NCBI GenBank assembly: GCA_965262415.1
Contig: OZ253533.1
Coordinates: 1,131,222 to 1,195,221 of the forward strand
DNA: 64,000 nt
Direction: 5' to 3'
Source of the DNA: Rhodospirillales bacterium
GTDB lineage: Bacteria > Pseudomonadota > Alphaproteobacteria > Rhodospirillales > Casp-alpha2
Part shown: piece after piece, positions 12,261-60,350 of the stretch
How positions within the stretch are numbered: the first letter of the stretch is position 1
Layout: every line of letters begins with the position of its first letter
Notes under the pieces: generated by a model
What the model was told of the DNA's origin: nothing
The model's database searches: none
The model's input: only the letters and a program-made list of their open reading frames with translations
Made by a program: the position numbers and the translations under genes

Positions 12261-12683
12261 TCATGCCAGCGTCGCCCGCTCGAACCAGTAGTGGCATAGG
12301 TCCTTGACCATATCAGATACGGCGTTCAAGCCCATCGGCTTGGTGACGAAGCTGTTCGCGCCACGTTCGTAGGATCGCTGAATGTCGCGCGGCTGGTCGG
12401 AGGTGGTCCAAACGATGACGGGAATGTGTCTCAGGACGGGAGAACTCTTGAAGTGCCTGAGGCAACTCAATCCGTCTGCGCCCGGCAAATTCAGGTCCAT
12501 CAGCACGATCTGTTTATGATTGGACGTGCGTTTGGCGTTCTTCTCGCAGTACTCGATTGCAAGCTCCGCCGTTTCCAGATGCACGACGGATATTGTCGGA
12601 TCGCCGAGTTTATTGATCGCACGGGTCACGACCCGTGCATCCGCGGCGCTGTCTTCGACCAGTATGATCACGTTTTGCTTCAT
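12261..12683 (-). CDS. Single-domain response regulator (receiver only)
   Basis: ILVEDSAADA ... VLMDLNLPGADG ... VIVWTTS ... FVTKP receiver signature. Sits 5 nt downstream of the kinase. Confidence 0.87.
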   Translation of the reverse strand: MKQNVIILVEDSAADARVVTRAINKLGDPTISVVHLETAELAIEYCEKNAKRTSNHKQIVLMDLNLPGADGLSCLRHFKSSPVLRHIPVIVWTTSDQPRDIQRSYERGANSFVTKPMGLNAVSDMVKDLCHYWFERATLA

Positions 12684-12688
12684 CGTGC

Positions 12689-13945
12689 TTACACGGCCCT
12701 CAGCATCAGCTCGAACGAAGCGCCGCCTTGCGAGGACGGATACAGTCTGATCGTCCCGTTGTAGCGCTCGACAATTCTTTTGACGATGGCCAGCCCCATA
12801 CCCGTCGTGTGCACCGCGGTGCCCCCGGATTCCTTGTTATCTTCGCCCCTGCGGGGGTCGGCCGCACGCTTGAACATCTTGAAGATGTCCTCGTGCAGCC
12901 CATCGGGGATGCCCGGACCGTTGTCACTGACGACGATCCGGACCGCACCGTCGCCGTCGTCACTGGCCTCGATCACCACGTGCGGACTCTCGTTCGAATG
13001 CGTGGCTGCGTTTGAAATCAGGTTCTGCATCATCGCCAGCGCGTGCGCGCGTGCGCAACGGATGACCGGCAGCTTGTGCGGCACATCGATCCGGAGGCCG
13101 GAATCGTCGATAAGCGACTGCAGGTTGTCGACGGTCTCGGCCAGCACGCCGTTCAGGTCCACATCCTCGACGGTTTCATCGGCATTGCCGGCACGGCTGT
13201 AGTCGCGCAGCGAATTGATCAGGTCCGTCAGCCGGTCGGCGAGACGGATAATCGCGTTCAAGTCCTTTTTGCCCTGCGCGCTTATGGCGTCCGCGTGATC
13301 GTCGGCGACGATTTCCGCATAGTGCCGGATCCCGCGCAACGGCTCCTTGAGATCGTGCGACGCGACGTGGACGAAGGTCGACAGGTCCTCGTTCACCTGC
13401 TCCAGGTCGCGGTAGGCGACATTGAGTTCGCGCGTACGTTCCTCGACCCGCACCTCAAGCTCGCGGCGCATGGCGCGCAGTTCGGCGAGGGTGACCTCAT
13501 GCTCGGCGATTTCGTGCTTCAGTTCCGCGTTGACCTTTTCCAGGTCCCTGTTCAGCACCTGAAGGGCTTTGGGACTCGGGACCTTCAAGAGCTTGGGCAA
13601 TAGCGGCCAGATGGCGATCGCCGTCAAAAGGGAGATGATCGCCGTCGCCGCCTTGATCAGTCCCTGCAGGCCATACGCCGGCTGCCAAAGCGTCACCATC
13701 CCCACCAGATGCGTGAGCCCGCAGGCCAAAATAAACATCGCAAACAGGACGATCGTGGTCCGGTGTTCGATCTCCGGACGTTTCCGGACGAACACCACCA
13801 GTGCCGCCGGGATCGACGCATAGGCGAGGAATATCAGCGCATCGGAAACGGCGTGCAGTGCCACCAAGTCGGGGCGCCACAACAAACAGTAACCGTGCGG
13901 CATGAACGACGCCGCCCCGAAAAGGTACTCGATGATGCTCTGCAT
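12689..13945 (-). CDS. Sensor histidine kinase with N-terminal ethylene-binding-domain-like membrane module
   Basis: H-box VASHDLKEPLRGI, N/G boxes (NLISNAATHS, DNGPGIP, GMGLAIVKRIV) and a 3-TM N-terminus matching the ETR1 EBD (see findings). Confidence 0.88.
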   Translation of the reverse strand: MQSIIEYLFGAASFMPHGYCLLWRPDLVALHAVSDALIFLAYASIPAALVVFVRKRPEIEHRTTIVLFAMFILACGLTHLVGMVTLWQPAYGLQGLIKAATAIISLLTAIAIWPLLPKLLKVPSPKALQVLNRDLEKVNAELKHEIAEHEVTLAELRAMRRELEVRVEERTRELNVAYRDLEQVNEDLSTFVHVASHDLKEPLRGIRHYAEIVADDHADAISAQGKKDLNAIIRLADRLTDLINSLRDYSRAGNADETVEDVDLNGVLAETVDNLQSLIDDSGLRIDVPHKLPVIRCARAHALAMMQNLISNAATHSNESPHVVIEASDDGDGAVRIVVSDNGPGIPDGLHEDIFKMFKRAADPRRGEDNKESGGTAVHTTGMGLAIVKRIVERYNGTIRLYPSSQGGASFELMLRAV

Positions 13946-14142
13946 TTGAGCTCTCCCAAGCTTTCGCAGCCCTGTTATCCTAGGGACGGCGGGTTTTCAG
14001 GCATATGAGGGTTTTCCGATGATACACGGCGCGCCGAACGGCGTGAAGCGAACCGTCTTCTAGGCCCTTGCAGCCCGGCACGGCCGGGGGCTAAAGTCCG
14101 CCGCCCGGGCAACCGGCAGCAAACGTTTCGTACCCGGCAACC

Positions 14143-14232
14143 GGTGGGGTGGCAGAGTGGTCGAATGCGGCGGTCTTGAAAACCGTTGTGCGTGAGAGCG
14201 TACCGTGGGTTCGAATCCCACCCCCACCGCCA
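14143..14232 (+). tRNA. tRNA-Ser (anticodon UGA)
   Basis: Hand-folded cloverleaf. Acceptor GGTGGGG/CCCCACC, anticodon stem GCGGT/ACCGT with loop CTTGAAA, long variable arm, T-arm GTGGG-TTCGAAT-CCCAC, discriminator G and encoded CCA. Confidence 0.9.
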
Positions 14233-14413: not shown

Positions 14414-14956
14414 ATGCGCCTGGAGTGCATTGCAAGGACCGTTACTTTGAGCCGCCTGGACGTCATCGAGAGCATTACAACCGATCCCCGGTTCATCGAA
14501 TTTTCGAAGCACGTTCTCGCGTCCGGACCAAGCGAAGACCGCCCTAACATGGCGAATATCGATCTCATGTCGATGCCCGGACTGGTGCCGAACATCTACA
14601 TTCTTGATTTCAGGAAAGGCATCGACGACGGGCTGCTGATGAAGTTCGCGGGCTCGGAGGTGGAACGGAACTACCCCAAGCCGCTGCAAGGCAATTACCT
14701 CGACAAGCTCTATACGGGGCATGACCACAAGGAATTATTTATGAACGTGTACCGGCGGGCCTACCAGCACGGGGAGTCATTCTACACGCGCCGTGTCGTC
14801 CGCTACGAAGAAAACGGCGACGACCAGAAGTACCGCCTGGCAACCGCCTTGTTCTTTACCTGCTTTTCTGCGACCGGTGCGGTGGACTACGGTATCGGCC
14901 TCGCCTATTACGACTTCGCGCGCGAAAGGACCGAGCCCGTCTTCAGCAACGTCTGA
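14414..14956 (+). CDS. PAS_5 (DUF1457)-like PAS-domain protein
   Basis: ORF 14186..14956 trimmed to ATG 14414, because the longer form overlaps the tRNA. The pattern DLMSMPGLVPNIYILD ... KFAGSEVERNY resembles the alphaproteobacterial PAS_5 family. Confidence 0.6.
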   Translation: MRLECIARTVTLSRLDVIESITTDPRFIEFSKHVLASGPSEDRPNMANIDLMSMPGLVPNIYILDFRKGIDDGLLMKFAGSEVERNYPKPLQGNYLDKLYTGHDHKELFMNVYRRAYQHGESFYTRRVVRYEENGDDQKYRLATALFFTCFSATGAVDYGIGLAYYDFARERTEPVFSNV

Positions 14957-17017: not shown

Positions 17018-18079
17018 CTAAACGAACGGGACGTGGTCGGGATCGAGCGATAGCAGCTCATGCAGCGCCTGGTTCTTGACGTGCGAGACGCAGTGATGGC
17101 GGCAGCGCTTGGAAGGGTCGAGCTCATAGACGCGCTTGCGGAGCGCGTCCGACGCCCATAGCGCGCGGAAGCTCTGTTTGGCGATGGAGCCCAGCTTGCC
17201 GCTTTCCGTGTAGGCCTTGTCCTGACAGGTGTAGACGTTGCAGTCGGCGCCGATCACGGTCAGGAACTGAAGGTACGGACAGCTGCCGTAGGATTTCTCG
17301 AAGCGATCTTCCATCTCGTGGTAGTGATCAACGATCCGGAAGTTTCCATCTTCGAGCACTCTCGCCTGCTCGATCTCGGCGGCAACGACACTGGCCAGCT
17401 TGCGATGGTAGACATTGTTGTCATGCACGTCGTTGGAGACAACCGCTGCCGACAGTTTGACGTGGCCGACGCCAGCGTCACGCAGTTGGCGGCAGACGTC
17501 GGCAATGTGTCCGCAGTTGGTTTCGTCAACGATGAAGCTGACGCCCAATACACAGGAACTGCCGCGCTTCGCGAAATCGCGCAGGTTCTGCATCAGGGAG
17601 GTGTAGGCCCCTTCCTTGATCGCGCGGCTCTTGGCGTAGCTTCGGTCATCCCAAGCATCCAGGGAGACACGGATCCAGGTGCCGTATTCGGCAAACACGT
17701 CCGCCATGCGGCCTTTCAGGTTGGACCCGTTGGTCAGGCTGGCGACGCGCACGCCGCCTTCGGCCAGGTCGCGGATGCGCTCCGGCAGCGATTTGTAGAG
17801 CAGCGGCTCCCCGCCGCCCGAGAACGTCACCGCCTTGACCCCCATGTCGACCAGGTCACCGACGATCTCCTTCATCTTGGCGTCGGGAATGCGGTCACCA
17901 AGATCCATGTCCTCGCCAAGCGCCAGATGATCGGCACGGTAGGCACAGTACCAGCAGGCATGATTGCAGCGGTTGATCGGCTTGATGCGCACATGCACCG
18001 GCGCGATGACGCGGCCTTCGCGCAACGCGGTGATGTGATCCGGGAAATGCACGAACTTGGACGGACTGTACACCTGCAT
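17018..18079 (-). CDS. Radical SAM protein with Cys-rich C-terminal (SPASM/twitch-like) region
   Basis: CNHACWYC (CX3CX2C), GGGEPLL, and C-terminal cysteines (SCPYL, DCNVYTC, CRHHC). Start taken at ATG 18079; the ORF opens with TTG at 18127. Confidence 0.8.
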   Translation of the reverse strand: MQVYSPSKFVHFPDHITALREGRVIAPVHVRIKPINRCNHACWYCAYRADHLALGEDMDLGDRIPDAKMKEIVGDLVDMGVKAVTFSGGGEPLLYKSLPERIRDLAEGGVRVASLTNGSNLKGRMADVFAEYGTWIRVSLDAWDDRSYAKSRAIKEGAYTSLMQNLRDFAKRGSSCVLGVSFIVDETNCGHIADVCRQLRDAGVGHVKLSAAVVSNDVHDNNVYHRKLASVVAAEIEQARVLEDGNFRIVDHYHEMEDRFEKSYGSCPYLQFLTVIGADCNVYTCQDKAYTESGKLGSIAKQSFRALWASDALRKRVYELDPSKRCRHHCVSHVKNQALHELLSLDPDHVPFV

Positions 18080-18243
18080 GACGCCGTTAGAACACGCACG
18101 CCGGCTAGGCGGAATGATCTGGATCAATCGCCGGAAATTGCGGGAATTACGTATTCATCAGACGGCACTGTTTCCGTCAAAATAACGGTCAGATCAAAAG
18201 ATCATGAAGAAGAGCGGCTGAGCCGCCGGTCTCCCCCAGTGCG

Positions 18244-26647: not shown

Positions 26648-28069
26648 ATGGGATTGGATATTAAGTCTCCGAGCGATGTTCTTAAGTACGTTAAGGACAA
26701 CGAAATCGGTTATGTCGACCTGCGCTTTACGGACCCGCGCGGCAAGTGGCAGCACCTGACGATGGTGTCCGACTTCATCGAAGAAGAAACCTTCGAAGAC
26801 GGCATCATGTTCGACGGCTCGTCGATCGCCGGCTGGAAGGCCATCAATGAATCGGATATGGCGCTCATTCCGGACGCCTCGACCGCGGTCATGGACCCGT
26901 TCTCCGCACAGCCGATGCTGATCCTGAACTGCGACATCGTCGAGCCGACCAACGGTCAGCCGTACGAACGCGATCCGCGCTCCGTCGCCAAGAAGGCCGA
27001 AGCCTACCTCGGCTCCACCGGCATCGGCGACACTGCCTACTTCGGTGCCGAGCCGGAATTCTTCGTGTTCGACGACGTCCGCTACAAGGTCGACATGAAC
27101 GAGTGCTACTACGGTTTCACCTCCGAAGAAGGCCCGTATGTCACCGGCACCGTGTTCGATGACGGCAACCTGGGCCACCGCCCGGGCGTCAAGGGCGGCT
27201 ACTTCCCGGTACCGCCGGTCGATCAGGCGCACGACATCCGCGCCGAAATGGTCTCGGTGTGCATGGAAATGGGCCTGGTCATGGACAAGCACCACCACGA
27301 AGTGGCGCCGTCGCAGCACGAGCTGGGCATGGCGTTCTCGACGCTGGTGCGCGCTGCCGACAACGTGCAGATCTACAAGTACTGCGTGCATATGGTTGCT
27401 GCCACCTACGGCAAGACCGCGACCTTCATGCCGAAGCCGGTTGCCGGCGACAACGGTACGGGCATGCACACCCACCAGTCGATCTGGAAAGACGGCAAGC
27501 CGAACTTCGCCGGTTCGGGTTACGCCGATCTCTCCGACGAGGCGCTCTACTACATCGGCGGTATCATCAAGCACGCGAAGGCCATTAACGCCTTCACCAA
27601 CCCGTCGACCAACTCCTACAAGCGTCTTATCCCGGGCTTCGAAGCGCCGGTGCTGCTGGCCTACTCGGCCCGCAACCGTTCTGCTTCGTGCCGGATCCCG
27701 TTCTCGGGTTCGCCGAAAGGCAAGCGCGTCGAAATCCGCTTCCCGGATGCGACCGCCAACCCGTATCTCGCCTTCTCGGCGATGATGATGGCCGGCCTCG
27801 ACGGCATCCAGAACAAGATCCACCCGGGCGATGCCATGGACAAGGACCTGTACGACCTGCCGCCGGAAGAACTGGCCGACGTGCCGACGGTTTGCGGCTC
27901 GCTGCGTGAAGCCATCGAAAGCCTCGATGCGGACCGCGGGTTCCTGACCAAGGGCGATGTGTTCACCGACGATCAGATCGATGGCTACATGGATCTGAAG
28001 TGGGAAGAAATCTACAACTTCGAACACACGCCGCACCCGGTCGAGTTCATGATGTACTACTCTTCCTAA
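26648..28069 (+). CDS. glnA: Glutamine synthetase type I
   Basis: GS-I length and motifs ([25 protein letters not shown], adenylylation-site context [10 protein letters not shown]). Confidence 0.96.
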
Positions 28070-28100
28070 CGCGGACCCGGGGCGTAAGCCCTGCCGTGGG

Positions 28101-28135
28101 GACCCCCGCCAGCGATGGCGGGGGTCTTTTCGTTT
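28101..28135 (+). terminator. Rho-independent terminator of glnBA
   Basis: gacccccgcc-agcgat-ggcgggggtc (10-bp perfect stem) followed by ttttcgttt. Confidence 0.8.
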
Positions 28136-28338
28136 GTGTTTCGGATCAAAGGAACGGTGCCAGCTGTCGAAACCGTATCTCCTCCTTGCGACAGAGCGTC
28201 GAGCTATCGAAAAGGGCGGCCGGAGAAATCCGCCGTCCTTTCACTATGGTCCTAGATCGAACGCTAGGAGGCCCGGTAGACCCGCAGAGCCGACGGGTTT
28301 CGGGAATCGAGCGGGTGGCCGCTGATGACCCTGAGCGG

Positions 28339-28590
28339 TCATGAGGCCGTCATTCCGGCAAGCATGGCGCCTAGTGCCACGATATGGATCAACATGATCG
28401 CCTTGTCATTCCAAAGCACGCCGACTGCGAACCAACCAACCACGCCAACCACAAACAGATAAAGGTTCCATGGCGTCATTCCGAACGCAGTCGCCGCATA
28501 TCCCATGATCTGGATAATGGACGCGATCCACTTGATAACGAGTACTACTCTGGTTCCGTTAAAGGTCGAAACGGCCACGTCAGACGGCAC
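28339..28590 (-). CDS. Hypothetical 83-aa membrane protein (about 3 TM)
   Basis: Hydrophobic ORF in the AT-richer islet. Overlaps the SDR stop by 11 nt. Confidence 0.5.
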   Translation of the reverse strand: MPSDVAVSTFNGTRVVLVIKWIASIIQIMGYAATAFGMTPWNLYLFVVGVVGWFAVGVLWNDKAIMLIHIVALGAMLAGMTAS

Positions 28591-29287
28591 GGGTTATTCC
28601 CCCATCGACCCGAATGTTCTGTCCGGTGATATATCCACCTCCATCCGATGCAAGAAACGCCACCACTGAAGCGATTTCATTCAGCGAACTCCCGTATCGC
28701 CCCATCGGTATACGTGAACGGAACTCCTCTTTCTCGGGCAGGCTATCTATGAACCCGGGCAGCACGTTGTTCATTCGTACATTGTCGGCTGCATACTTGT
28801 CAGCGAACAGCTTGGTGAATGCGGCCAAACCCGCTCTAAATACTCCTGAGGTCGGAAACACTGGATCAGGTTCAAACGCTGCGAACGTTGAAATATTGAT
28901 GATCGCGCCTGCCTTTTGATCCTGCATGATCGGTGTGACAAGGCGAGTCGGACGGACCACGTTCAAGAAATAAACGTCCATGCCTGTATGCCATTCTTCA
29001 TCGCTCAATTCCAGCACAGGAGCGCGGGGGCCATGTCCTGCGCTGTTCACCAGAACGTCGATGCGGCCCCACTTATCCATCGCCAGATCGACCAGTTTCT
29101 TTAGGTCGCCATTCGATTGGTTGGACCCGGTGACCCCAACACCACCCAACTCATTTGCCAGTGCCTCGCCCTTTCCGGACGACGACAAGATAGCGACCTT
29201 GAATCCGTCATCAGCCAACCTGCGCGCTGAGTCCGCGCCCATGCCGCTTCCGCCTGCTGTGATGACTGCAACTTTATTGATGCTCAT
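28580..29287 (-). CDS. Short-chain dehydrogenase/reductase
   Basis: VAVITAGGSGMG, NSAG, and YAADNVRMNNVLPG motifs. Confidence 0.85.
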   Translation of the reverse strand: MSINKVAVITAGGSGMGADSARRLADDGFKVAILSSSGKGEALANELGGVGVTGSNQSNGDLKKLVDLAMDKWGRIDVLVNSAGHGPRAPVLELSDEEWHTGMDVYFLNVVRPTRLVTPIMQDQKAGAIINISTFAAFEPDPVFPTSGVFRAGLAAFTKLFADKYAADNVRMNNVLPGFIDSLPEKEEFRSRIPMGRYGSSLNEIASVVAFLASDGGGYITGQNIRVDGGITRAV

Positions 29288-29394
29288 TGGAACCTCCAAT
29301 TCTCTGAGAGAGCGGGAAAATATACCTCTCTAGGCTCAGCGACTAATCATTTGTCATTGCATATCCAGTAGTTTTTCTACAGCCTTTGATCATT

Positions 29395-30267
29395 ATGGTG
29401 CGAAATCCGAAACTTAACGCGCTTAGGGTGTTCGATGTGGCGGCTCGTCATTTAAACTTTGGATCCGCCGCTGATGAATTGAATGTGACTCAAGGCGCGG
29501 TTGCTCAATCGATAAGGGGACTCGAGGCCGACCTTGGGATCCTTCTGTTCAAACGGCTACCACGGGGCGTCACGCTTACTGACGTTGGCCTCCGTTACCA
29601 TAATGGTATCGCAAGAGGATTGGCCGTCCTTGATCAGGCCACAGAGGAATTAAGAACGGGCACCAATTCAATATCAGTCAGCGTGCCACCGTCATTCGCA
29701 TCCAAATGGCTCGTTCGCAAACTGCCCTACTTTTTAGAGCGCAATCCCGACATCGAGGTGCGGACTATCGCGACGGAGGCTGTAACAGACTTCCATACAC
29801 AGAATGCCGATGTTGCCGTTCGACAGGGATCAAAACCCACGAGCGATGAACTTATTGCCAATATGCTAGCACCTATCGAGCTTGTTATTGTTTGTGGTCA
29901 ATCCGTCGCATCGCCGCCGGATGCGGACGTTTCCATAGAGTGGTTCGTGGATCAACCGCTAATCCAAGATAGTCACAGACACTGGAACTCCTTGCTTGGG
30001 GAACACTGTTTTAAACCACAACACAAGCTTCTGAGTTTTAACCAAACCGCCTTGGCGATTGATACAGCGATAAGTGGTCAAGGTTATGCTGTTGTTCCGA
30101 GCTTTATTGCGGCAGACGATTTGGCGTCCGGGCGATTGACCGCGATCAAATCCATCATGCACAAAGATGATGATGGCTTCTGGGTCGTTCACCTCGACAA
30201 TGATCCACCCAACAGCCAGACACGCTCGCTATTCGTTGAATGGCTACTGGAGGAAGCAAACAACTGA
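29395..30267 (+). CDS. LysR-family transcriptional regulator (GcvA-like)
   Basis: LNALRVFDVAARHLNFGSAADELNVTQGAVAQSIRGLE wHTH. Divergent from the SDR. ATG 29395 preferred over TTG 29386. Confidence 0.88.
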   Translation: MVRNPKLNALRVFDVAARHLNFGSAADELNVTQGAVAQSIRGLEADLGILLFKRLPRGVTLTDVGLRYHNGIARGLAVLDQATEELRTGTNSISVSVPPSFASKWLVRKLPYFLERNPDIEVRTIATEAVTDFHTQNADVAVRQGSKPTSDELIANMLAPIELVIVCGQSVASPPDADVSIEWFVDQPLIQDSHRHWNSLLGEHCFKPQHKLLSFNQTALAIDTAISGQGYAVVPSFIAADDLASGRLTAIKSIMHKDDDGFWVVHLDNDPPNSQTRSLFVEWLLEEANN

Positions 30268-30409
30268 TCGACCGCTTCTGGCTATTAACGGCCGTCGTCG
30301 TCCCCAGGATACCGCGTCCGGTATGCGCAGGGGAACCGGACGCGCTTAAAGTTTCTCATTAATGTGAGAAATTTCTCACTTTCTATGAGAACCGACACCA
30401 GCGGGCCGC

Positions 30410-31972
30410 TCAGCTCGCTTCCGCGATCTCGTCGGCCGGGCGAAGCTTGGTCACGAACGATTGCACTTCGCGAGCGAGGTTCTCCGATTCGCCCTGCAGC
30501 GCGTTGGAGGCGTCCAGCAGATCCTGTGCCTGGCTGGCGCTCTTGGCGACACCGTCCGTCACATTGCCGACCAGCGACGAGAACGTCGACACGTCGCCTG
30601 CCGTCTGCGTCGCGTTGTCGGCGATGCTCTGCGTCGACGCGCCCTGCTCCTCGATCGCAGCGGCGATGATGGAAGCGGCCTCGCGCAGGCTCTCGATCGA
30701 CGTGCCGATGGCCTCGATGTCGGCGGAGGTCTGCTCCGTCGACGACACGACGTCGTTGATCTGCTGCTCGATCTGTTCCGCGGCCTTGGCCGACTGGCTC
30801 GCCAGATTGCCGACCTCGCTGGCGACGACGGCAAAGCCCTTGCCGGCTTCCCCGGCGCGCGCCGCCTCGATCGTGGCATTCAAGGCGAGAAGATTGATCT
30901 GTTCGGTGATACCGCTGATGACCTCGACGAAGTTGTGAATCTCGCCGACCTTGTCGGTCAGGCTGCGCACGTTCTCGGATGCACGCGTGCTCAGTTCCAC
31001 CGTGTGCGACGTCGTCTCGTTCGATTTGCCGATCTGCGCCGAGATTTCGCGCACCGATGCCGCCAGTTCCTTCGACGCCTCGGCCACCGCATCGACGTTG
31101 CCGGAAATGTTCAACGTCGTCTGGCTCGCGTCCTGGGCGCTGCCCTGCACCTCTTCCGACGCGCTCGTCATCGCCAGCGCCAGCGATTTCAGCGACGCGG
31201 ATGCATTGTTCACCGATTTAACGATCCCGCCGACCTGCACTTCGAAGTCGGCCGCGATCAGTTCCAGTTCACGCTCGCGCTCGGCCTTGCTCTCGGCTTC
31301 GGCCTCGACCTGGCGTCGCGATGCTTCCGCGGCCTCGCGTCCGGCGGCTTCGGCTTCGCCCTGTGCCACTTCGGCCTGCCCCAACGCGGCTTCGGCATCG
31401 CGTTGTGCGATCTCCGCCTTTCTCGATGCTTCCTCGGCGTCGCGGACGGCAACGGTGGCTTCGTCCAGTGCGGCGACCAGCTTGAGCGTACCGATGGCCA
31501 GCACCGCGGTTTCGACGACGACGATCACGGCATGCAGCACGACACGGAAGAAGTCCGCGCCCTGCGGGAAGACCCAGAAAGGCACGGTGAAGTTCAGCGC
31601 CAGGTGATGCACCGCGACAACGCCGGTGGCCACCGCGTAGACCCGCCAGTCGGCGAAGCCCAGCAGCATCGCCAGACCGGCGAAGAAATACATATGAATG
31701 TCGAGCTGCCAGGGATGCGAGCGGAACGCATAGACGAGGACGGCGACGATCAACATGAACGACGCCGCGGTCAGGTAGCGCGTCAGCGGCCCGGTGCCGG
31801 TCAGCCGCCACGAAACCGCGGGCGCCGCTGCGAACACGGCGGCCAGCGCCGTCGGCATCAGCGCATCGTTGCCCGTGATCATGCCGGTCAGCCAGACCAC
31901 CGGCACATGTACGAAAAGATACGGGATCAGGTACTTGGCGGTCGTCTGCCGCAGTGCGTCGGTTGCCGTCAT
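30410..31972 (-). CDS. Methyl-accepting chemotaxis protein (multi-TM N-terminus, no obvious periplasmic domain)
   Basis: Highly conserved signalling hairpin [27 protein letters not shown]. Confidence 0.9.
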
Positions 31973-31983
31973 TGTCTTTGTTC

Positions 31984-32352
31984 CTACTGTTCGATACCGA
32001 GAGAGAGGCAGGCGCCGGGCGCCAGCGGGTTCATGGCCGCTAGCGCGCCCGTCCTCTCGAGAATCCGGTCGGCCTCAAGGCCCGTGAAATTCGCGATCAC
32101 CACATTGCCGGCAGCGCCGAAGCGCGCGATGCGCCCGTCCGCCCGCGCCACCGCCTCGAGCGTCTGGTCGCCACTGAAAGACGGCGGGAATACCAGCGCG
32201 ACATTCTCCATGTCCGGCGTCACCCGAAGCGACAGCCACGTAATCGCAGCAATACCGAGCACCCCGAACAACAGGGATACCGCCATGGCCTGATGCCGTT
32301 CCTGGGCCGTTTCAACGTGCATTTGCGGTTCACTCCGAACCAACGTGGTCAA
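31984..32352 (-). CDS. Hypothetical membrane-anchored protein
   Basis: ORF 11 nt upstream of the MCP. One TM helix ([19 protein letters not shown]). No known motif. Confidence 0.45.
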
Positions 32353-47852: not shown

Positions 47853-48404
47853 TTGACCCGGCCCCTCGTTATGACATCCAGCATCCGCTTTATCCTCGCT
47901 ACCACATTGATTGCGCTTGCTCTTTCGGTGCCATCGCTTCCGCTCGAAGCCAAAAAAGGCGGTGGTGGCGGTGGTGGCGGTGGTGGCGGCGGTGGCGGCG
48001 GTGGCGGCCCCGCCCCGGTAACGATCGACGTGCGCCGGGATCTCGATTTCGGCGATGCAGCTGGGGACGGCTCGCTCTCCGGCACGGTCACCCTGAACCC
48101 GATTACCGAAATAAAAACCGTATCTGGCGGCGTGATCGATTTCGGCGGCCGCGAGCATGTCGCGGAGTTCCGGATCAACGGCGACAAGAATGCCGATGTC
48201 TACGTGGTGCTGCCGGCTTCGGTCACCATCACCACACCGGGCGGCACGATGACAATAAACAGCTTCACGATGGATCAGGGCAACCCGGTCAATCTCGGCA
48301 GCAAGGGACGGGCTACGATCAAGGTCGGCGCCACACTGAACCTGTCGCCCGGACAAAGCGCCGGCAACTATACCGGCAGCTTCACGATCTCGGCGGATTA
48401 TTGA
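47853..48404 (+). CDS. Secreted DUF4402-type fibre subunit with an N-terminal Gly17 tract
   Basis: Signal peptide, KKG(17)PAP, then DLDFG ... INGDK ... VGATLNLSPGQSAGNYTGSFTISADY (C-terminal G-x-Y-x-G-x-F-x-V/I-x-x-x-Y signature). Confidence 0.75.
   Translation: MTRPLVMTSSIRFILATTLIALALSVPSLPLEAKKGGGGGGGGGGGGGGGGGPAPVTIDVRRDLDFGDAAGDGSLSGTVTLNPITEIKTVSGGVIDFGGREHVAEFRINGDKNADVYVVLPASVTITTPGGTMTINSFTMDQGNPVNLGSKGRATIKVGATLNLSPGQSAGNYTGSFTISADY
47958..48008 (+). repeat. In-frame (GGY)17 triplet/nonamer repeat
   Basis: ggc ggt ggt x3, then ggc ggc ggt x2, then ggc ggc. That is 51 nt of uninterrupted GGY codons. Confidence 0.95.
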
Positions 48405-48424
48405 CGCCGTCCAGAAGGCGCCAC

Positions 48425-48454
48425 TTTTTCGCGAACTTGTCATGCGGCGTTCAG
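48425..48454 (+). promoter_or_regulatory. Conserved upstream box, copy 2
   Basis: tttttcgcgaacttgtcatgcggcgttcag lies upstream of the 48593 gene. Confidence 0.45.
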
Positions 48455-48592
48455 CTTTCACGGCTAGTTACATGGCGTAAGGAATGCGTGATGGCGACGA
48501 CGCCGAATGGACGGCAAAACGGCGCCGGTTACTGGCGCAATCACGCATCCGAATGCTGCATTATGTGCCTGGACCAATCGAACTCCTGACTG

Positions 48593-49114
48593 GTGTTGCC
48601 CGCAATGAAAGTTTCTTCTCGGCTCACGGCGTCGTTGTTGAAGACAATTATTTGTCTCGCGCTCGTTCAGACGGTATCGGGCAGCCCCGCTAGCGCGCAG
48701 ACACCGGCGCCGCTGCAACTCATTCAAAAAAGAGACATAAAATTCGGTACGTACGCGAGCGACATCGCCGCGCCCGGCACCGTCATTCTGAGTCCGAACA
48801 GCGACACCACATCCACCACGGGTGCGGTCTTCGACTTCGGCGGCGTCGTCAAGCGGGCAAGGTTTCAGATACTCGGCGAACCGAAAAGCTATGTCATCGT
48901 GACGCTGCCGACATCGATCACCATTCGCAAGGGAACCTCGTCGCATACTATGGTGGTCGACACGTTCACCATGGACAACACGAACCCTATCCGCCTGAAC
49001 AAGAACGGCAAGAGAACGATCAACATCGGCGCGACACTGCACGTCGGTATCAATCAGCGGAAAGGCAATTACAAGCGGGACAACGAATTCGTCGTCTACG
49101 TCGACTATCAATAG
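48593..49114 (+). CDS. Secreted DUF4402-type fibre subunit (paralogue of 47853)
   Basis: Signal peptide, DIKFG, FDFGG, ILGEPKS, and C-terminal IGATLHVGINQRKGNYKRDNEFVVYVDYQ. Confidence 0.75.
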   Translation: MLPAMKVSSRLTASLLKTIICLALVQTVSGSPASAQTPAPLQLIQKRDIKFGTYASDIAAPGTVILSPNSDTTSTTGAVFDFGGVVKRARFQILGEPKSYVIVTLPTSITIRKGTSSHTMVVDTFTMDNTNPIRLNKNGKRTINIGATLHVGINQRKGNYKRDNEFVVYVDYQ

Positions 49115-49130
49115 AAACCGGCAAAAACGC

Positions 49131-50003
49131 CTATGGCGCGGTTGCGGTCGCTTCCGCCATCAGCTCGGCACCCTCGTCGGCAATCGTCCGGTAAGCGACG
49201 TGCAACTGGTTGCCGGACAGAGTGACACCGTCCGGCACGCGCAACGTCATCTCAACGGTGCGGCTGTCATTCGGGGTATAGACGGCAAGCCGCATGACCC
49301 GTGCCACGACCACATCCTTGCCACCGGCCTTGAGCGTTGCCGTCAAATCGCCGAACGCGGAACGGTCACCGCTGCGGTCGAGATTGAAACGAATGCGCGG
49401 CAGATCGCCCTGCTGTGCCGCCGGAAGGAACTGCATGTCGCTAATGGTCACCGATTGCTTCAAGTCGCCGTGACGGACGATCACCGGAATGGCGATCCCG
49501 AAAACCGGGATCAGCCGTACAGCAGCACCGGTCGCCGGCGCCTCGACACTCTGTGATTCGACGTCGGGAACGGCGCGCATCATCAGGTGCGAACGGTATT
49601 CGCCCGGCGCCAGGTCTTTCGGCTTGCGCAGGAGAATCCGGATCGCCTGAGACGCCCCGGGCGCCAGCGAGACTTGTCGCGGCGAATAACGGAACAGCCG
49701 ATCGGCGAAATTCTGGCCTTCTTCCGGTTGCGCGATCTCGACCATGTTGCCGTTCTGCTCCATACGCATGTTGACGACGGAAATTCGGTAGGTCGCCGTT
49801 GCAGAACCCTTGTTCACCAAACCCAGCTGCGCCGAGCGGGTACGTCCCTCGAAGACGACACGGGTCGGCGCAACGACCAGATCGCCGGCGCTTTGCGCCG
49901 CCACCGTTGCCCCCTCGCCAAGCAGTGCAGCAAGCACCAGCATGGCGATGCCGGCAATTCGTGTGGCGGCGGCCGGGCCGCGATCTTTCGAAGTTCGGGT
50001 CAT
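49131..50003 (-). CDS. PapD-like periplasmic pilus chaperone
   Basis: Signal peptide, then LVVAPTRVVFEGRTRSAQLGLVNKGSATATYRISV (PapD_N pattern with the conserved Arg), and a second Ig-like domain. Confidence 0.72.
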   Translation of the reverse strand: MTRTSKDRGPAAATRIAGIAMLVLAALLGEGATVAAQSAGDLVVAPTRVVFEGRTRSAQLGLVNKGSATATYRISVVNMRMEQNGNMVEIAQPEEGQNFADRLFRYSPRQVSLAPGASQAIRILLRKPKDLAPGEYRSHLMMRAVPDVESQSVEAPATGAAVRLIPVFGIAIPVIVRHGDLKQSVTISDMQFLPAAQQGDLPRIRFNLDRSGDRSAFGDLTATLKAGGKDVVVARVMRLAVYTPNDSRTVEMTLRVPDGVTLSGNQLHVAYRTIADEGAELMAEATATAP

Positions 50004-50058
50004 GGGTAAGGCCTTCCTCTCAAAAGGTCCGGGCTGTCTTTATGTTTCGGAAATCTGT

Positions 50059-50829
50059 TCAGTTGTAGGAAACGACGATGCTGACGAACGGCGCGCTGGG
50101 CGAAAATGCCTGCGCGAGAACCGTTTCCCGCTCGCCCGCACCGGCACCGTCCGCTCCGGCGGAGGTCTGCTGCGAGCCGGCCGGCTGGTCACCGCCGGAT
50201 TGCTGCTGGCCGGATTGCCCGCCCTGTGCCTGCCTAGCGGCGGTCACGGCACCGACACTGAAAACATCGGCGCCGGATGCATCAAGCGACGGGGTCAGCC
50301 CGGCGCTGTGTTCGAATCCGCTGTAGCTGACAAGGCTGGCACCGTTCGAAAATACCGTCTGCTGCGGCAGGATCACGGCATAGGCCTGATTCGGCGCACC
50401 GGCAACGGCGATTGCCGCACTCGGACCGACCGGCACCACCGCCAATCCGGAACGCTGGAAACGAGGCGCCGCGGCGGTTCGCGTGCCGCTGCCGCCAGAG
50501 GCCGCCGGGGCTGGCGTCGGCGCCGGCGCATCGAAACCGATGTTGGTCGTCGTCGAAACGAGGATTGCCGGAATGCTGTTCGATCCGGTGAACGTCTGCC
50601 GTACTACGGTCGTCTGCTGCACCACCGTGGTCTCGGTCGTCACAGTGCCGATGCTGCCGGCGCCGTAGATGGTCGCGCCGACGGACGCGGTCGCCTGTGC
50701 CGCCTGTGCGCTCACATCAAGGAGCACCGCGCCGCTGCCGACGATGCCGAATGCGATGGCAAGTGCCCCGAATTGCCGAGCCGAAGTCATCAATGGTGCG
50801 CCCTGTAAATGATACGAATCGTACGTCAT
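50059..50829 (-). CDS. Two-module secreted subunit: T/V/Q-rich N-module, Pro/Ala linker, DUF4402-like C-module ending VSIVVSYN
   Basis: Signal peptide (starts possible at 50829 or 50790), TVTTETTVVQQTTVVRQTFTG, APAPTPAPAASGG, and a Q/G/S-rich insert before the terminal strand. Confidence 0.6.
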   Translation of the reverse strand: MTYDSYHLQGAPLMTSARQFGALAIAFGIVGSGAVLLDVSAQAAQATASVGATIYGAGSIGTVTTETTVVQQTTVVRQTFTGSNSIPAILVSTTTNIGFDAPAPTPAPAASGGSGTRTAAAPRFQRSGLAVVPVGPSAAIAVAGAPNQAYAVILPQQTVFSNGASLVSYSGFEHSAGLTPSLDASGADVFSVGAVTAARQAQGGQSGQQQSGGDQPAGSQQTSAGADGAGAGERETVLAQAFSPSAPFVSIVVSYN

Positions 50830-50900
50830 ATTCTGCCCTTGTTTGATCTCAATATCAAATGTTTAGCGGCAATCGCCGTCCTGTCGCGCTCAATACCGTC

Positions 50901-50933
50901 AAACAGAAAGGCCGCCGGGATGAACCGGCGGCC
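50901..50933 (-). terminator. Rho-independent terminator immediately after the major subunit gene
   Basis: Minus-strand read: ggccgccgg-ttcatc-ccggcggcc, followed by TTTCTGTTT. Confidence 0.75.
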
Positions 50934-50980
50934 CTTCTGTCGTTAGTTTCTCGCCAGCCTCGACTGAGGCGCGTTCGTCA

Positions 50981-51490
50981 TCAGTTGTACGACACCGTCA
51001 CCGTGAAGCTGCCCGAATAGCTGTCGGCAGCCTGGTTGGCGCCGACCGCCAGGGCGGCACCGACGTTCACGGAAGAGGCGCCAGAACCGTCCAGCGTCGG
51101 CGTCGCGCCAGCGTCGTCGGACAGGGTCGCCGTCATGTCTGCGCCGCCGGAACCGCCAGTCGCGGACAGCGTGGCCGAAGCCGGAACCACGAGCGAAAAG
51201 GTCTGGTTTGCTTCACCGGAAACAGCGAAAGACGCGGCGGTCGGCGCGTCACCCGACAGCAGGTCGACGTTGGCGTCGCCCGTCCGGGTGCCCGTCGTGC
51301 TGACGGTCACGGTACCGGCGGAGGTGGTCGGCGCGATCAAGCCGAATTCGAGGTCGGAAGTCTTGGAGATGGCAATCGGCGCCGTAATCGTGGCCGCTGC
51401 GGAGGCAGTGGCGTCGGCTGCTTTGGCGGCACCCGGAATGGCAATCATGGCAATGAGCGCGACCGCTCCGAGGACGTTGTTCTTCTTCAT
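50981..51490 (-). CDS. DUF4402-type putative major fibre subunit
   Basis: MKKNNVLGAVALIAMIAIPGAAKA signal, DLEFG, and C-terminal VGANQAADSYSGSFTVTVSYN. Ala/Thr/Ser/Gly-rich like structural pilins. First gene of its operon, followed by a terminator. Confidence 0.8.
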   Translation of the reverse strand: MKKNNVLGAVALIAMIAIPGAAKAADATASAAATITAPIAISKTSDLEFGLIAPTTSAGTVTVSTTGTRTGDANVDLLSGDAPTAASFAVSGEANQTFSLVVPASATLSATGGSGGADMTATLSDDAGATPTLDGSGASSVNVGAALAVGANQAADSYSGSFTVTVSYN

Positions 51491-51838
51491 GGTCTTTACC
51501 CTTTTGTCGAAACCCAATCGCTTGGGAAGTGAAAGTCTAAACTCGGCCGGTCGCTGACCATCCGATACCGCCATTTCGTAAGGCCGTTACCTGACAGAAA
51601 CATGACGAATTAAAAAATAATCGAATTATTTCAGAAGCTTACAGAAAGCTGACATAATCGGACAAATACCTTACAGCGCCTTACAATTTTGGTGGCGCCG
51701 GCCCCACGGGGTGGCACTTCCGGGCCGTTATGCTTAAGCCGTCTTTAACCATGATCGCCGCACTATGACCGGCGAGAGTCTGTGCGGCGCACTGGGCGCG
51801 CCGGGCCGGCTTTCGGGTAACTGGGACGAAGCGGTCGG

Positions 51839-54800
51839 TTGAAAACGAACACGCCAACTGGGAAAGGGCGCGGCATCCGCTGCACGATTCTTGCCGCCTT
51901 GCTGGCACTGGCGGCGCTGACCGGCAAGGCACAGGGCGATGTCGTCGACATGCCGCCTGCAGAGGAGGTCAAGTCGGTCTCCATGGACATGCCGCCGCCG
52001 GCACCTGAAACGGCACAGGCTCCCCCGCCGACACCGTCCCTCCCTGCCGCGCCTGCGTCCGGGCAGGCACCGCCGCCAGCACCGGCGACCCCGTATACGC
52101 AGCCGGAGCGCTCGGAAGAAGAACTGCTGATCCTGAAAATGACCCTCGGCAGTCTCGACCTCAGCGATGCGATCCTCGGTTACCCCAACCAGGGCAGCCT
52201 GCTCTTGCCACTGAGCGACGTGGTCGGGCTCTTCGATTTCCCCATCGAGGTCGATCCCGAGAACGGTCGAGCGGAGGGATGGTTCATTGAGGAGAATCGC
52301 CTGTTCTCGCTGGACCTTTCGGCCCGGCAGGTCGTCATCGCCGGCGAGAGCCGGACCGTGAACCCGGCTTACATGGAGCAGTTGCCCGACGACATCTACG
52401 TCGACGTGCGCGAGCTTGCGGTCTGGTTCCCCGTCGACATCGAGTTCGACCTGCCAAATCTGATCGTCGATGTGACATCGCGCGAGCCCCTGCCGATCGA
52501 GGCGCGCCTGCTACGTGATCAGCGCCGCGAAAAGGCACTCTCGCAGCGCCGGACCGACAAGCGTGATCTCAAGGAGGTCGAGGTACCATACGAATGGATC
52601 ACTTGGCCGGTCTCCGACACGACCGTGAACTTCACCGTCACCTCGGGCGACGACGGGCCCGAACTTACACGATCTTTCACGACCCTCGCCACGGCCGACC
52701 TGGCCAAGCTCAACGCCGACATATTCCTCTCCGGCGATGACACCGAGCGACTGAGCATCGCGCGCCTGAAACTGGGGCGGCAAAGCACCCGCGGCGATCT
52801 TCTCGGGGATATTGAGGCAACACAGTTCGCGGTCGGCGATATCTTCGCACCACAGGTGACGCACGTCTCGCGTACCGCGCTCGGCCGTGGCGCCTTCGTA
52901 TCGAATGAACCCATCGGCCAGCAGGTGGAGTTCGACCGTATCACGCTGCAGGGCGACCTGCAGCTAGGCTGGGAGGTCGAACTTTACCGGAACGAGGTTC
53001 TGCTCGATTTCCGCCAATCCCAGACCGACGGGCGCTATCTGTTCGAGGACGTGCCGCTCCTGTTCGGCGTCAATGTGCTCAAGCTGGTTTTCTACGGTCC
53101 TCAGGGACAGCGCCGCGAGGAGATCCAGCAGCTTCGCATCGGTTCGGAGCAGATCAAGCCGGGCGAGCACCTGTACGCGGTGTCCGCCAACCAGCAGGAC
53201 AGTCTGCTGCTGCTGGGTGACAAGGACAGCCTCAACACGGACGGCTTCCAGGGAAAATCACGGATGACCGCGGAGTACAAGTACGGCCTCAGCAAGGAGC
53301 TCTCGGTCGGTGCGAACTTCGCCAGCATCCCGTTCGAGGGCGGACACCGGTCCTACGGTGGCGCAAGTATGGTCGCGTCGCTCGGCCCGGTCTATACGCG
53401 CGCCGACGTGACCAAGGACATCGGCGCCGGCTGGGCCGGCACGCTGTCGGCCCAGACCAATATATTCGGCGTCACAGTGCTCGGCGAGCACACGTATCTC
53501 AACGATTTCCTGAGCGAGGAGTTCAGCGACGAGGCCGATCCGCTGGAATCGGAATCGCGTCTGCGCCTCGACGGCGTCCTGCGCGGCGGCTTTTTGCCGC
53601 ATATCCCCTATGCACTGACCGTCAACCACAGCGTCAACAAGTCACGCGACCGCTCGACCGAACTTCAGAACAGGCTATCGACGGCGATTGGTCCGGCATC
53701 CGTGACCAACACCCTGAACCTGGCCCTCACGGACCCGGCCGAATCCGCCGACAGTACCAGCGTCAGCGGCTCCCTTCAGATCGGCGGCAGGATCGGCGCG
53801 GTCCGGACACGTGGTCAGATCAGCTATGCGATCGACCCCGAAGCAACGATCAATTCCGCGGCGCTTTCCGGCGACTGGCGGCTCTCGCCGACGCTCAACG
53901 CGCGCGCCGGCATCAACAAGGAGCTGACCGGGTCACAGAAAGCGACCTACTCGATGGGCGTCAGTGCCGATGTCGATTACGTCGCGCTCGGTGTCGACGG
54001 ACAGTACGACGACCTCGGCGATTACGCGCTCAAACTGCAGTTCACCTATTCCTGGGGCAAGGATGCCGCGGACGGCGGCCTGCGCGTGAGCTCCAAGCCG
54101 ACCGCCGAGCGCGGTACCATGACCGTCAAGGTGTTCCGCGATCTGGACGGCGATGGCGCCTTCACCGACGGCGTCGACGAGCCCCTCGAGGGTGTCGGGT
54201 TCCGTTCCGGACGGGCGCAGCTGCCGCAAAAGACCAATGCCGAAGGCCTCGCTTTCGTCACCGGGCTCGACACCTACAGCCCGGTCCCGTTCGAGGTCGA
54301 TATCGGCTCCCTGGAAGATCCCTTCTGGATCGCCGCGCCCGAGGCGGTCAAGGTATCGCTTCGGCCCGGCGTGCCCGGCGAAATGGCGTTCGCCGTAATT
54401 TCGACCGGCGAGATCGACGGCGTCGTATATCGCCGGGACGGCGACTGGTCGGAACCGGTCTCCGATGTGCACGTGCAGCTCGTGGACATGTCGGGCGACG
54501 TCGTCAAGGAGGTCCGCTCGCAGTATGACGGCTTCTATCTTCTCGATTTCCTGCGCCCGGGTCGCTACACGCTACGTATCGACCCCGAGCAACTGACGCG
54601 CCTGAAGCTGCCTGACGTCCCGGCACGCAACGTGGAAATCGGTAACGACGGCACCATCCTCGGTGGCGAGGATTTCGTTATCGGCGGAGCCCTCGAAACG
54701 GAAGCCGCGTTCCGGGCACGGCTCGCCGCATTCGAGACGCAAGCCGCCGCCGAGGCGGCGTGGGCGGAGATCGGCGACCTCATCCGCAAGGGCCACGACG

Positions 54801-54970
54801 GGATCCGGCCGACCTACCAGGACACGCCAGCCGCGGACGGCACCGGCACGGTCGTGCACCTGTTCGCCGGTCCGTTCACCAGCCGCACCGCTGCCGGGGA
54901 CGCATGCACCCAGTTGCGCGCCGAATTCGGGAATACGTGGTGCAACCCGCAAGACATCCAGGCCCAATAG
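51839..54970 (+). CDS. 1043-aa secreted usher-like outer-membrane protein with Pro-rich N-terminus and C-terminal regulatory-like and SPOR-like modules
   Basis: TTG start and signal peptide. Pro-rich 60 aa. An N-domain reminiscent of usher NTDs (EELLILKMTLGSLDLSD ... LLLPLSDVVGLFDFPIEV). A long region of alternating beta-strand-like sequence. DLDGDGAFTDG, then GVVYRRDG ... YDGFYLLDFLRPGRYTLRI (CarboxypepD_reg-like), and a final roughly 85 aa that are SPOR-like. Confidence 0.7.
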   Translation: MKTNTPTGKGRGIRCTILAALLALAALTGKAQGDVVDMPPAEEVKSVSMDMPPPAPETAQAPPPTPSLPAAPASGQAPPPAPATPYTQPERSEEELLILKMTLGSLDLSDAILGYPNQGSLLLPLSDVVGLFDFPIEVDPENGRAEGWFIEENRLFSLDLSARQVVIAGESRTVNPAYMEQLPDDIYVDVRELAVWFPVDIEFDLPNLIVDVTSREPLPIEARLLRDQRREKALSQRRTDKRDLKEVEVPYEWITWPVSDTTVNFTVTSGDDGPELTRSFTTLATADLAKLNADIFLSGDDTERLSIARLKLGRQSTRGDLLGDIEATQFAVGDIFAPQVTHVSRTALGRGAFVSNEPIGQQVEFDRITLQGDLQLGWEVELYRNEVLLDFRQSQTDGRYLFEDVPLLFGVNVLKLVFYGPQGQRREEIQQLRIGSEQIKPGEHLYAVSANQQDSLLLLGDKDSLNTDGFQGKSRMTAEYKYGLSKELSVGANFASIPFEGGHRSYGGASMVASLGPVYTRADVTKDIGAGWAGTLSAQTNIFGVTVLGEHTYLNDFLSEEFSDEADPLESESRLRLDGVLRGGFLPHIPYALTVNHSVNKSRDRSTELQNRLSTAIGPASVTNTLNLALTDPAESADSTSVSGSLQIGGRIGAVRTRGQISYAIDPEATINSAALSGDWRLSPTLNARAGINKELTGSQKATYSMGVSADVDYVALGVDGQYDDLGDYALKLQFTYSWGKDAADGGLRVSSKPTAERGTMTVKVFRDLDGDGAFTDGVDEPLEGVGFRSGRAQLPQKTNAEGLAFVTGLDTYSPVPFEVDIGSLEDPFWIAAPEAVKVSLRPGVPGEMAFAVISTGEIDGVVYRRDGDWSEPVSDVHVQLVDMSGDVVKEVRSQYDGFYLLDFLRPGRYTLRIDPEQLTRLKLPDVPARNVEIGNDGTILGGEDFVIGGALETEAAFRARLAAFETQAAAEAAWAEIGDLIRKGHDGIRPTYQDTPAADGTGTVVHLFAGPFTSRTAAGDACTQLRAEFGNTWCNPQDIQAQ

Positions 54971-56167: not shown

Positions 56168-56374
56168 TGATCCTCCCGCCGTCATTCTGGCCTTTGGGGC
56201 AGGAAGTTTCCACACCCCCGTTGCGGCATCGACCAGCCGAAGATTCCAATGCCACACCTCACCGGTCCGGGACAGGTCCTTGATGGCCCCTCCCGTTGGA
56301 CGGGTGCGGTCTGCGAAGGTATTCTGGCGGCGAACGTCAACGACGACGCATGCAGACAGCAATCGGACACGGCA

Positions 56375-60145: not shown

Positions 60146-60350
60146 TGTCGATCTCCCTACATTTTGAATGGTTAATGTATGCTGGTTTTGGTAGAATTCA
60201 ACACCTCACGCCTGTAATATTCTGAAACCGGCGGCAGTTCTGCGGTCATCCCTCATTCTCATTAGAAGACTATTCTGTTAGCATCCGGGCCAGGTATTGG
60301 GGGACACGGGGAAAAAGACCGGTCTACTGGTTTGGACAATTGGAAGGTTC

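Follow-up and report, generated by a model that had tools for sequence, protein, structure and literature searches.

Does an uncultured alphaproteobacterium with no known plant association possess a receptor of the kind with which plants perceive ethylene? The question is raised by two neighbouring genes in a 64,000-nucleotide stretch of a Rhodospirillales genome (contig OZ253533.1), referred to here as the window. The larger gene (12689..13945) encodes a sensor histidine kinase of 418 amino acids in which Pfam recognises ETR1_N, HisKA and HATPase_c domains, and its start codon is common to the orthologues P0002-P0006. The smaller gene (12261..12683) encodes a stand-alone response-regulator receiver of the Rcp1/RcpA type, 140 amino acids long, with a match to Pfam Response_reg only. 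The two are co-oriented on the reverse strand, as are all the features described for them below, with 5 nucleotides between the kinase stop codon and the receiver. We conclude that the pair is probably a two-component system with a copper-dependent ethylene receptor as its sensor, and put the probability of this reading, which is drawn from sequence, at roughly three in four.

Identification of the ethylene-binding domain

The original prediction had aligned kinase residues of about 30-125 by eye with helices I-III of Arabidopsis ETR1, and formal comparison by Pfam, BLASTP, MAFFT and HHalign arrives at the same register. Kinase residues 27-122 (13580..13867) match the Pfam ETR1_N model (PF25487) from its position 2 to its last, 97 (E=2e-36); the score is 124.6 bits, where the cutoff is 27. 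For the remaining comparisons, the plant references were database proteins named ‘ethylene receptor’ by their source that are 85-91% identical to the ETR1 N-terminus. One of these, P0122, a plant receptor domain with 91% identity to that N-terminus, aligns with the kinase by BLASTP at 34% identity over 119 amino acids (E=3e-17), helices I and II being free of gaps. The HHalign comparison of a profile built from the kinase and 150 bacterial domains with a profile of 41 plant domains returned a probability of 99.74% and E=4.4e-27 over 105 columns. A MAFFT alignment was made of the kinase, the Azospirillum brasilense receptor AzoEtr1, the ETR1 N-terminus and five plant receptors. MAFFT, BLASTP and HHalign give a single register, in which helices I and II show no gaps and are numbered 10 higher than in ETR1, and helix III comes after a 3-residue difference in the preceding loop.

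Three transmembrane helices had been expected, and three are seen. The hydropathy profile has hydrophobic segments near residues 36-46, 71-78 and 102-113 and none beyond residue 130, and the AlphaFold2 (AF2) model of the kinase (mean pLDDT, the model's own per-residue confidence score, 83) has helices at 25-55, 62-87 and 91-112. The basic loop 54-62, together with K118 and K121, would by the positive-inside rule place the N-terminus of the sensor in the periplasm and the C-terminal output in the cytoplasm. Experimental structures offer no template for this region: a sequence search of the PDB with the ethylene-binding domain found no relative even at E up to 10, and the Foldseek matches to the kinase model span about 200-280 columns, which fits the cytoplasmic kinase part of the 418 residues. 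From the sequence search and the structural matches, we conclude that no ethylene-binding domain has a solved structure.

In comparisons with five orthologues, the ratio of non-synonymous to synonymous substitution rates (dN/dS) lies between 0.05 and 0.11 in the sensor domain and between 0.15 and 0.25 in the kinase core; these ratios are approximate because dS, at 0.8-1.7, is near saturation. Of all parts of the protein, the sensor domain is under the tightest constraint. Judged by the alignments above, the bacterial kinase is genuinely related to the plant ethylene receptors, and the resemblance goes far beyond chance.

Conservation of the predicted metal and ethylene site

The MAFFT alignment has eight columns that are invariant in the kinase, AzoEtr1 and the plant receptors: D35, Y42, I45, P46, I72, C75, H79 and K98, which correspond in that order to D25, Y32, I35, P36, I62, C65, H69 and K91 of ETR1. 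Cys65 and His69 of ETR1 have been implicated in coordination of the Cu(I) cofactor (PMC10266040). Their proposed counterparts C75 (codon TGC, 13721..13723) and H79 (CAT, 13709..13711) fall on C65 and H69 in MAFFT, BLASTP and HHalign, lie on helix II in every alignment, and are encoded at exactly the positions that had been given for them. They are one helical turn apart on helix II, while D35 (GAT, 13841..13843) is on helix I and its partner K98 (AAG, 13652..13654) on helix III. The equivalents of D25, Y32, I35, P36 and I62, which had been listed as required for ethylene binding, are likewise all present. The list agrees with the literature, in which seven ETR1 residues are necessary for ethylene binding and all are kept in AzoEtr1 (PMC11819568, citing Wang et al. 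2006); PMC11819568 and PMC10266040 name four of the residues explicitly.

The same positions are nearly fixed in 259 bacterial homologues. C75 is found in 259/259 (100%), H79 in 258/259 (99.6%), Y42 in 99%, and I45, P46 and I72 in 98% each. K98 is conserved in 95% and D35 in 94%, with Asn in 4% at position 35. Positions 35 and 98 co-vary: the pair is Asp/Lys in 245 homologues, Asn/Leu in nine, His/Leu in two, Asn/Lys in two and Asp/Leu in one. This is as in the published coupling of the equivalent ETR1 residues, where Lys91 co-evolves with Asp25 and relays the signal to helix III (PMC10266040). Asp25 is needed for copper binding and for high-affinity ethylene binding, the Asn variant being of lower affinity, and Asp occupies the position in 93.55% of 1,221 domains (PMC10266040). 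The kinase studied here carries the standard Asp/Lys form, with the high-affinity Asp instead of Asn. Asn/Leu occurs chiefly in one group, of which the Legionella lansingensis protein P0064 is a member, and His/Leu occurs in two related PAS-containing proteins, P0098 and P0058; homologues of either form may be low-affinity or differently coupled receptors.

A conserved motif of predicted periplasmic location

Upstream of the Pfam ETR1_N match lies a motif, F14-x-P16-H17-G18-x-C20-x-x-W23-x-P25 (residues 14-25, 13871..13906), the core of which (P16-H17-G18-x-C20-x-x-W23) is outside the Pfam model and is shared by AzoEtr1. Of the 259 homologues, 98% have H17, 99.6% have C20 and 98% have W23, which puts these residues on a par with the copper ligands. 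A single invariant cysteine, C20, precedes helix I. HHalign pairs W23 with W11 of the plant receptors and stops short of the plant C4/C6. The positive-inside rule predicts that H17-x2-C20-x2-W23 lies on the periplasmic side of the membrane. The paper on AzoEtr1 does not mention disulfides, dimers or the residues H17, C20 and W23 (PMC11819568), and a literature search for the motif string found nothing, which is weak evidence of novelty as figures are not indexed.

A role for the motif in dimerisation or copper acquisition is plausible from its composition and placement. It could be a capture and loading site from which Cu(I) passes to the membrane centre at C75/H79, or a redox-sensitive dimer lock. 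We link to this a second idea, that environmental ethylene, for example from sunlit dissolved organic matter or from neighbouring microbes, might feed an Rcp-type pathway in a lineage with no known plant association. Taken together, the motif as a fourth functional element and environmental ethylene as the driver of a pathway that is driven by light in relatives are doubtful, and we offer them as conjecture.

Some bacteria also encode stand-alone ethylene-binding-domain proteins with no output domain, such as P0183 of Exilibacterium tricleocarpae (145 amino acids) and P0184 (143 amino acids). Both carry the full PHGYCFLW motif together with the Cys and His ligands.

Linker, kinase core and receiver

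Between sensor and kinase, Pfam detects neither a PAS nor a GAF domain. In the AF2 model, a short helix at 115-120 is followed by one continuous helix, 125-216, so that the linker (residues 125-187, 13385..13573) runs unbroken into the first helix of the dimerisation and histidine phosphotransfer (DHp) domain. We compared the distance from P123 to the phospho-accepting histidine in 98 direct fusions of an ethylene-binding domain to a kinase. It varies from 28 to 113 residues, and in 92/98 it falls in one of two heptad registers (length modulo 7 equal to 4 in 68 fusions and to 0 in 24). These counts are not independent because the fusion sequences are related; of the distinct linker lengths, 16/21 belong to the two registers. 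The linker of the present kinase, 74 residues from P123 to H197, is in the dominant register. Heptad periodicity of this kind is the pattern expected of a rigid coiled-coil transmitter, and would imply one here.

The HisKA (DHp) domain occupies residues 188-253 (13187..13384), with the phospho-accepting histidine at H197 (codon 13355..13357), and the HATPase_c catalytic domain occupies residues 304-416 (12698..13036), with intact N, G1, F and G2 boxes. H197, N308, N312, D341, G343, G345, F355, F358, G382 and G384 are invariant in 25 proteins of the same layout; the cyanobacterial homologues used for comparison were P0037, P0048 and P0100. The receiver has E10, D11, T93 and K115 as well as the phospho-acceptor D63 (codon 12495..12497). 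By residue content, then, both kinase and receiver should be catalytically competent.

The output had been described as a phytochrome-style HisKA/HATPase kinase with a separate receiver, and its closest solved relatives bear this out. For the kinase, these are the bacteriophytochrome kinases 9ys3 and 8uph (E about 1e-29, residues 159-413), and the top Foldseek match to the model is the Stigmatella bacteriophytochrome 8upk. The best PDB relatives of the receiver are 6xvu, Rcp1 (1i3c), RcpA (1k68) and RcpB (1k66), with E-values of 1e-18 to 1e-20. The entry 6xvu is annotated only as ‘Response regulator’; we take it to be a Deinococcus phytochrome regulator.

Coupling of the two genes extends beyond this genome. 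We examined 48 loci carrying the domain, in 21 of which a kinase of this type is in the same open reading frame (ORF). A related receiver lies directly downstream in 16 of the 21, including all six of the orthologous loci L001-L006, with gaps of 7-59 nucleotides. Since the receiver has no output domain, it would act through protein-protein contact with a partner. A 447-residue REC-HisKA-HATPase protein is encoded at 60297..61640 on the forward strand, 46 kb from the sensor pair, and is a conceivable downstream partner.

Relationship to characterised receptors

The domain is common. A word-indexed search found more than 2,226 proteins matching at E<=1e-10, nearly all of those listed carrying PF25487, and an exhaustive search of 1.84 billion representatives found 8,573 clusters (50% identity) at E<=1e-3 and 6,055 at E<=1e-10. 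Many proteobacteria and cyanobacteria are known to encode such domains with wide-ranging outputs (PMC7700396). In the loci examined, the fusions include HWE kinases (Roseibium, Amorphus), direct GGDEF proteins, PAS-GGDEF-EAL proteins, PAS-HisKA kinases and a hybrid kinase. The PAS-less arrangement of ethylene-binding domain, HisKA and HATPase is also found in Chlorogloeopsis, Nostocales, Legionella lansingensis and Hoeflea halophila.

The original prediction had regarded a proteobacterial kinase with an ethylene-binding domain as unexplored ground, and on this point it has been overtaken. AzoEtr1 of the alphaproteobacterium A. brasilense was proven in 2025 to bind ethylene directly and with high affinity, and it controls biofilm formation and root colonisation (PLoS Genet, PMC11819568). 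It is a protein of 525 amino acids with an ethylene-binding domain, a PAS domain and a kinase, and the gene just downstream of it encodes a 135-residue receiver that lacks an output motif (PMC11819568). We located AzoEtr1 on plasmid p1 of strain Sp7 (L051:3989-5566), with the length and the positions of D35, C75, H79 and K98 as in PMC11819568; it scores 132 bits with the Pfam ETR1_N model. The present locus is therefore a new compact example of a large recognised family, a proteobacterial representative of which has already been proven experimentally.

The likeness between the two systems is strongest at the sensor end. Both are Rhodospirillales membrane kinases with an N-terminal ethylene-binding domain and an output-less receiver immediately downstream (AzoRR(etr1) in A. 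brasilense). The numbering of D35, C75, H79, K98, H17, C20 and W23 is identical, and the sensor domains are 46% identical (E=1e-41). The remainder differs. AzoEtr1 has 525 residues and a PAS domain between sensor and kinase, whereas the present protein has 418 and a direct coiled-coil link; the kinase cores are only 25% identical, and no alignment is obtained between this receiver and AzoRR. The gene for AzoEtr1 is carried by a 1.75-Mb plasmid in a root-associated species, whereas the present gene is in a core chromosomal region of an uncultured lineage. Sequence comparison thus indicates a kinase that is AzoEtr1-like at the sensor end yet is not an AzoEtr1 orthologue.

SynEtr1 of Synechocystis PCC 6803 (Slr1212/UirS) is, like the present protein, a bacterial ethylene-binding domain on a histidine kinase, and its signal is passed by phosphotransfer to a response regulator (PMC11819568, PMC6682694). 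Unlike SynEtr1, the present kinase lacks a photosensory domain and is paired with a receiver that lacks an output domain. Both of the bacterial ethylene receptors that have been studied affect cell-surface properties.

With Arabidopsis ETR1 and the other plant receptors the kinase shares the homologous three-helix domain, all seven binding residues and the equivalent of Lys91, followed by a histidine-kinase-type transmitter. Plant receptors have a GAF domain and often a fused receiver, reside in the membrane of the endoplasmic reticulum and form dimers through Cys4 and Cys6. Their signalling passes mainly by way of CTR1 and does not depend on His-kinase activity (PMC11819568). The present protein, in contrast, has the H17-x2-C20-x2-W23 N-terminus, lacks a GAF domain, and combines a canonical bacterial kinase with a separate receiver. 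Its resemblance to the bacteriophytochrome/Cph1-Rcp1 pairs is at the other end of the molecule: the kinase core is nearest to 9ys3, 8uph, 8upk and 8f71, the order is again kinase then small receiver, and the receiver shares a C-terminal aromatic YWF motif with 6xvu in their alignment. The Pfam scan finds no PAS-GAF-PHY module and no bilin site, the input being a membrane ethylene-binding domain instead. As the PAS-GAF-PHY domains are missing, the protein is not a phytochrome and has only the output module of that lineage.

Proposed mechanism and alternatives

By homology with ETR1, SynEtr1 and AzoEtr1, we suggest that C75 and H79 hold a Cu(I) ion, that D35 positions H79, and that ethylene binds to the copper inside the membrane. 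The resulting change would travel through the D35-K98 bridge to helix III and then down the dimeric coiled coil to H197, whose autophosphorylation would change, and with it phosphotransfer to D63 of the receiver. We favour phosphotransfer as the output because the kinase is intact and constrained and the receiver tightly coupled. The direction of the response is less clear. Disruption of the receptor mimics ethylene in plants, Synechocystis and A. brasilense, giving constitutive responses, and ethylene inhibits the ETR1 autokinase (PMC11819568). For this reason, we adopt as the likeliest direction the inverse-agonist model of the three receptors that have been studied, in which the kinase would be ON without ethylene and OFF, or biased towards phosphatase activity, with it; by this analogy, the odds that ethylene switches the kinase off are about even.

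Several observations weigh against an ethylene-sensing two-component system. The host is uncultured and has no known plant association, which makes the ecological source of ethylene a conjecture; in aquatic and soil environments, ethylene is documented to arise both abiotically (by photochemistry) and from microbes (PMC6682694, PMC7700396). The low kinase identity to AzoEtr1 (25%), and a receiver unrelated to AzoRR beyond the fold, mean that the output behaviour of AzoEtr1 is not simply transferable. Sensor and kinase are separated by a PAS or GAF domain in each of AzoEtr1, SynEtr1 and ETR1, but not in the present protein. Finally, the scan of window genes found none for copper handling, ethylene metabolism, motility or biofilms among those it covered.

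The alternative that deserves most attention accepts that the domain holds Cu(I) and disputes the signal, which might be some other unsaturated or pi-acceptor small molecule (another alkene, CO, an isocyanide-like compound), or copper or redox status. In the last case, the difference between apo and Cu-loaded receptor, or oxidation of the periplasmic C20, would set kinase activity, and the invariant His-Cys-Trp motif could indeed respond to either. Ethylene receptors bind other olefins and CO weakly, which counts in favour of such a signal. So does the range of outputs to which the domain is fused across very different bacteria, as would suit a general environmental cue, and the host lineage is uncultured, with no evidence of plant association. 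Against such a signal, none of the residues required for ethylene binding has been lost, and the Asp is the high-affinity one (PMC10266040). Ethylene binding has been demonstrated in both of the bacterial homologues examined for it (PMC11819568), and ethylene is present in the aquatic and soil environments already mentioned. We therefore consider a signal other than ethylene unlikely.

It is far less probable still that the transmembrane domain is mainly an ion-conducting, Ca2+-permeable module with the kinase secondary to it, as has been proposed for plant ETR1 and ERS1. Ca2+ permeability of the plant receptors has been reported in a 2025 preprint (10.1101/2025.10.20.683334), which suggests testing bacterial homologues, and in a 2026 paper (PMC13261662). 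The intact, constrained kinase and its tightly coupled receiver point instead to phosphotransfer, and the heptad-periodic rigid linker indicates conformational coupling to the kinase. That the gene is the decayed, non-functional relic of a receptor, or that it resembles one by chance, we regard as practically negligible. Nothing was found in favour of this, and E-values range from 1e-17 to 1e-41, the catalytic and ligand residues are all intact, purifying selection is strong, and orthologues in the same gene order are found in five other genomes. The sequence evidence already refutes this explanation. The preferred reading remains that of a copper-dependent ethylene receptor acting by phosphotransfer, and the two observations that could have overturned it at the level of sequence were the opposite of what was found: C75 and H79 are in the helix II register and three transmembrane helices are present.

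The value of the locus is practical and not conceptual. At 418 residues, the protein is the shortest kinase version of the receptor, consisting of a sensor, one helix and a kinase, with no PAS or GAF domain. With this PAS-less, one-helix design, the kinase or one of its orthologues is well suited to structural studies and to in-vitro assays of how ethylene affects kinase activity, an effect that in bacterial receptors has so far only been inferred. The His-Cys-Trp motif, the co-variation of Asp/Lys to Asn/Leu and the heptad linkers provide testable hypotheses on how copper is loaded and how the signal is transmitted. Coming from a lineage that is not known to associate with plants, the locus also bears on what ethylene means to free-living bacteria.

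Genomic context

The best full-length relatives of the kinase are proteins of metagenome-assembled genomes (MAGs) that are 72-84% identical to it, the top match (84%) being from an uncultured Rhodospirillales MAG. Relatives of ParE among the 120 best matches listed come only from uncultured Rhodospirillales and Alphaproteobacteria. The receiver gene is followed downstream, on its own strand, by mlaA, a DUF218 gene and genes for an SLT_2 lytic transglycosylase and an RlpA-like protein (DPBB_1 and SPOR domains); no terminator or promoter is predicted between the receiver and mlaA. The gene order is kept in orthologous loci of five Rhodospirillales MAGs. In the more distant loci examined, L007-L012, only the kinase and receiver have matches, and the mlaA, DUF218, SLT_2 and RlpA-like genes were not found adjacent to them. 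Because the order was not found there, we infer no functional link to the genes on the mlaA side. MlaA, DUF218, SLT_2 and RlpA-like proteins, considered as downstream targets from gene context, are accordingly treated as the gene order of one clade.

Upstream, a match to a sigma-70-like promoter (TTCACG-17-TATCAT, 14019..14047) is located about 74 nucleotides before the kinase start; it has 9/12 matches and, as a comparison with the consensus only, is weak evidence. Beyond it is a divergent tRNA-Ser (14143..14232), the sole Rfam match found. An ORF of 133 amino acids on the far side of the tRNA (14555..14956, forward strand) has no Pfam or NCBIfam match and is conserved, at 86% identity, only in the closest relative, L001.

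Radical-SAM proteins are encoded at 17018..18127 on the reverse strand and at 56249..57901 on the forward strand. The former has a SPASM domain, lies beside genes for an SDR-family protein and a 3-hydroxyisobutyrate-dehydrogenase-like protein, and is found near the sensor pair in L001, L003 and L004. A stretch of low GC content (0.537 against about 0.62 for the window) extends over 28000..30460, between glnA and an ORF of 610 amino acids with no Pfam match (30461..32293); GC content by codon position picked out no confident gene within it. Lastly, the region 47853..54970 begins with tandem DUF4402 paralogues (47853..48404 and 48593..49114), followed by a 290-residue ORF on the opposite strand with no Pfam match and by a protein of 1,043 residues (51839..54970) that has a C-terminal SPOR domain and a weak match to CarboxypepD_reg. 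This cluster may be of a surface or fimbrial type.

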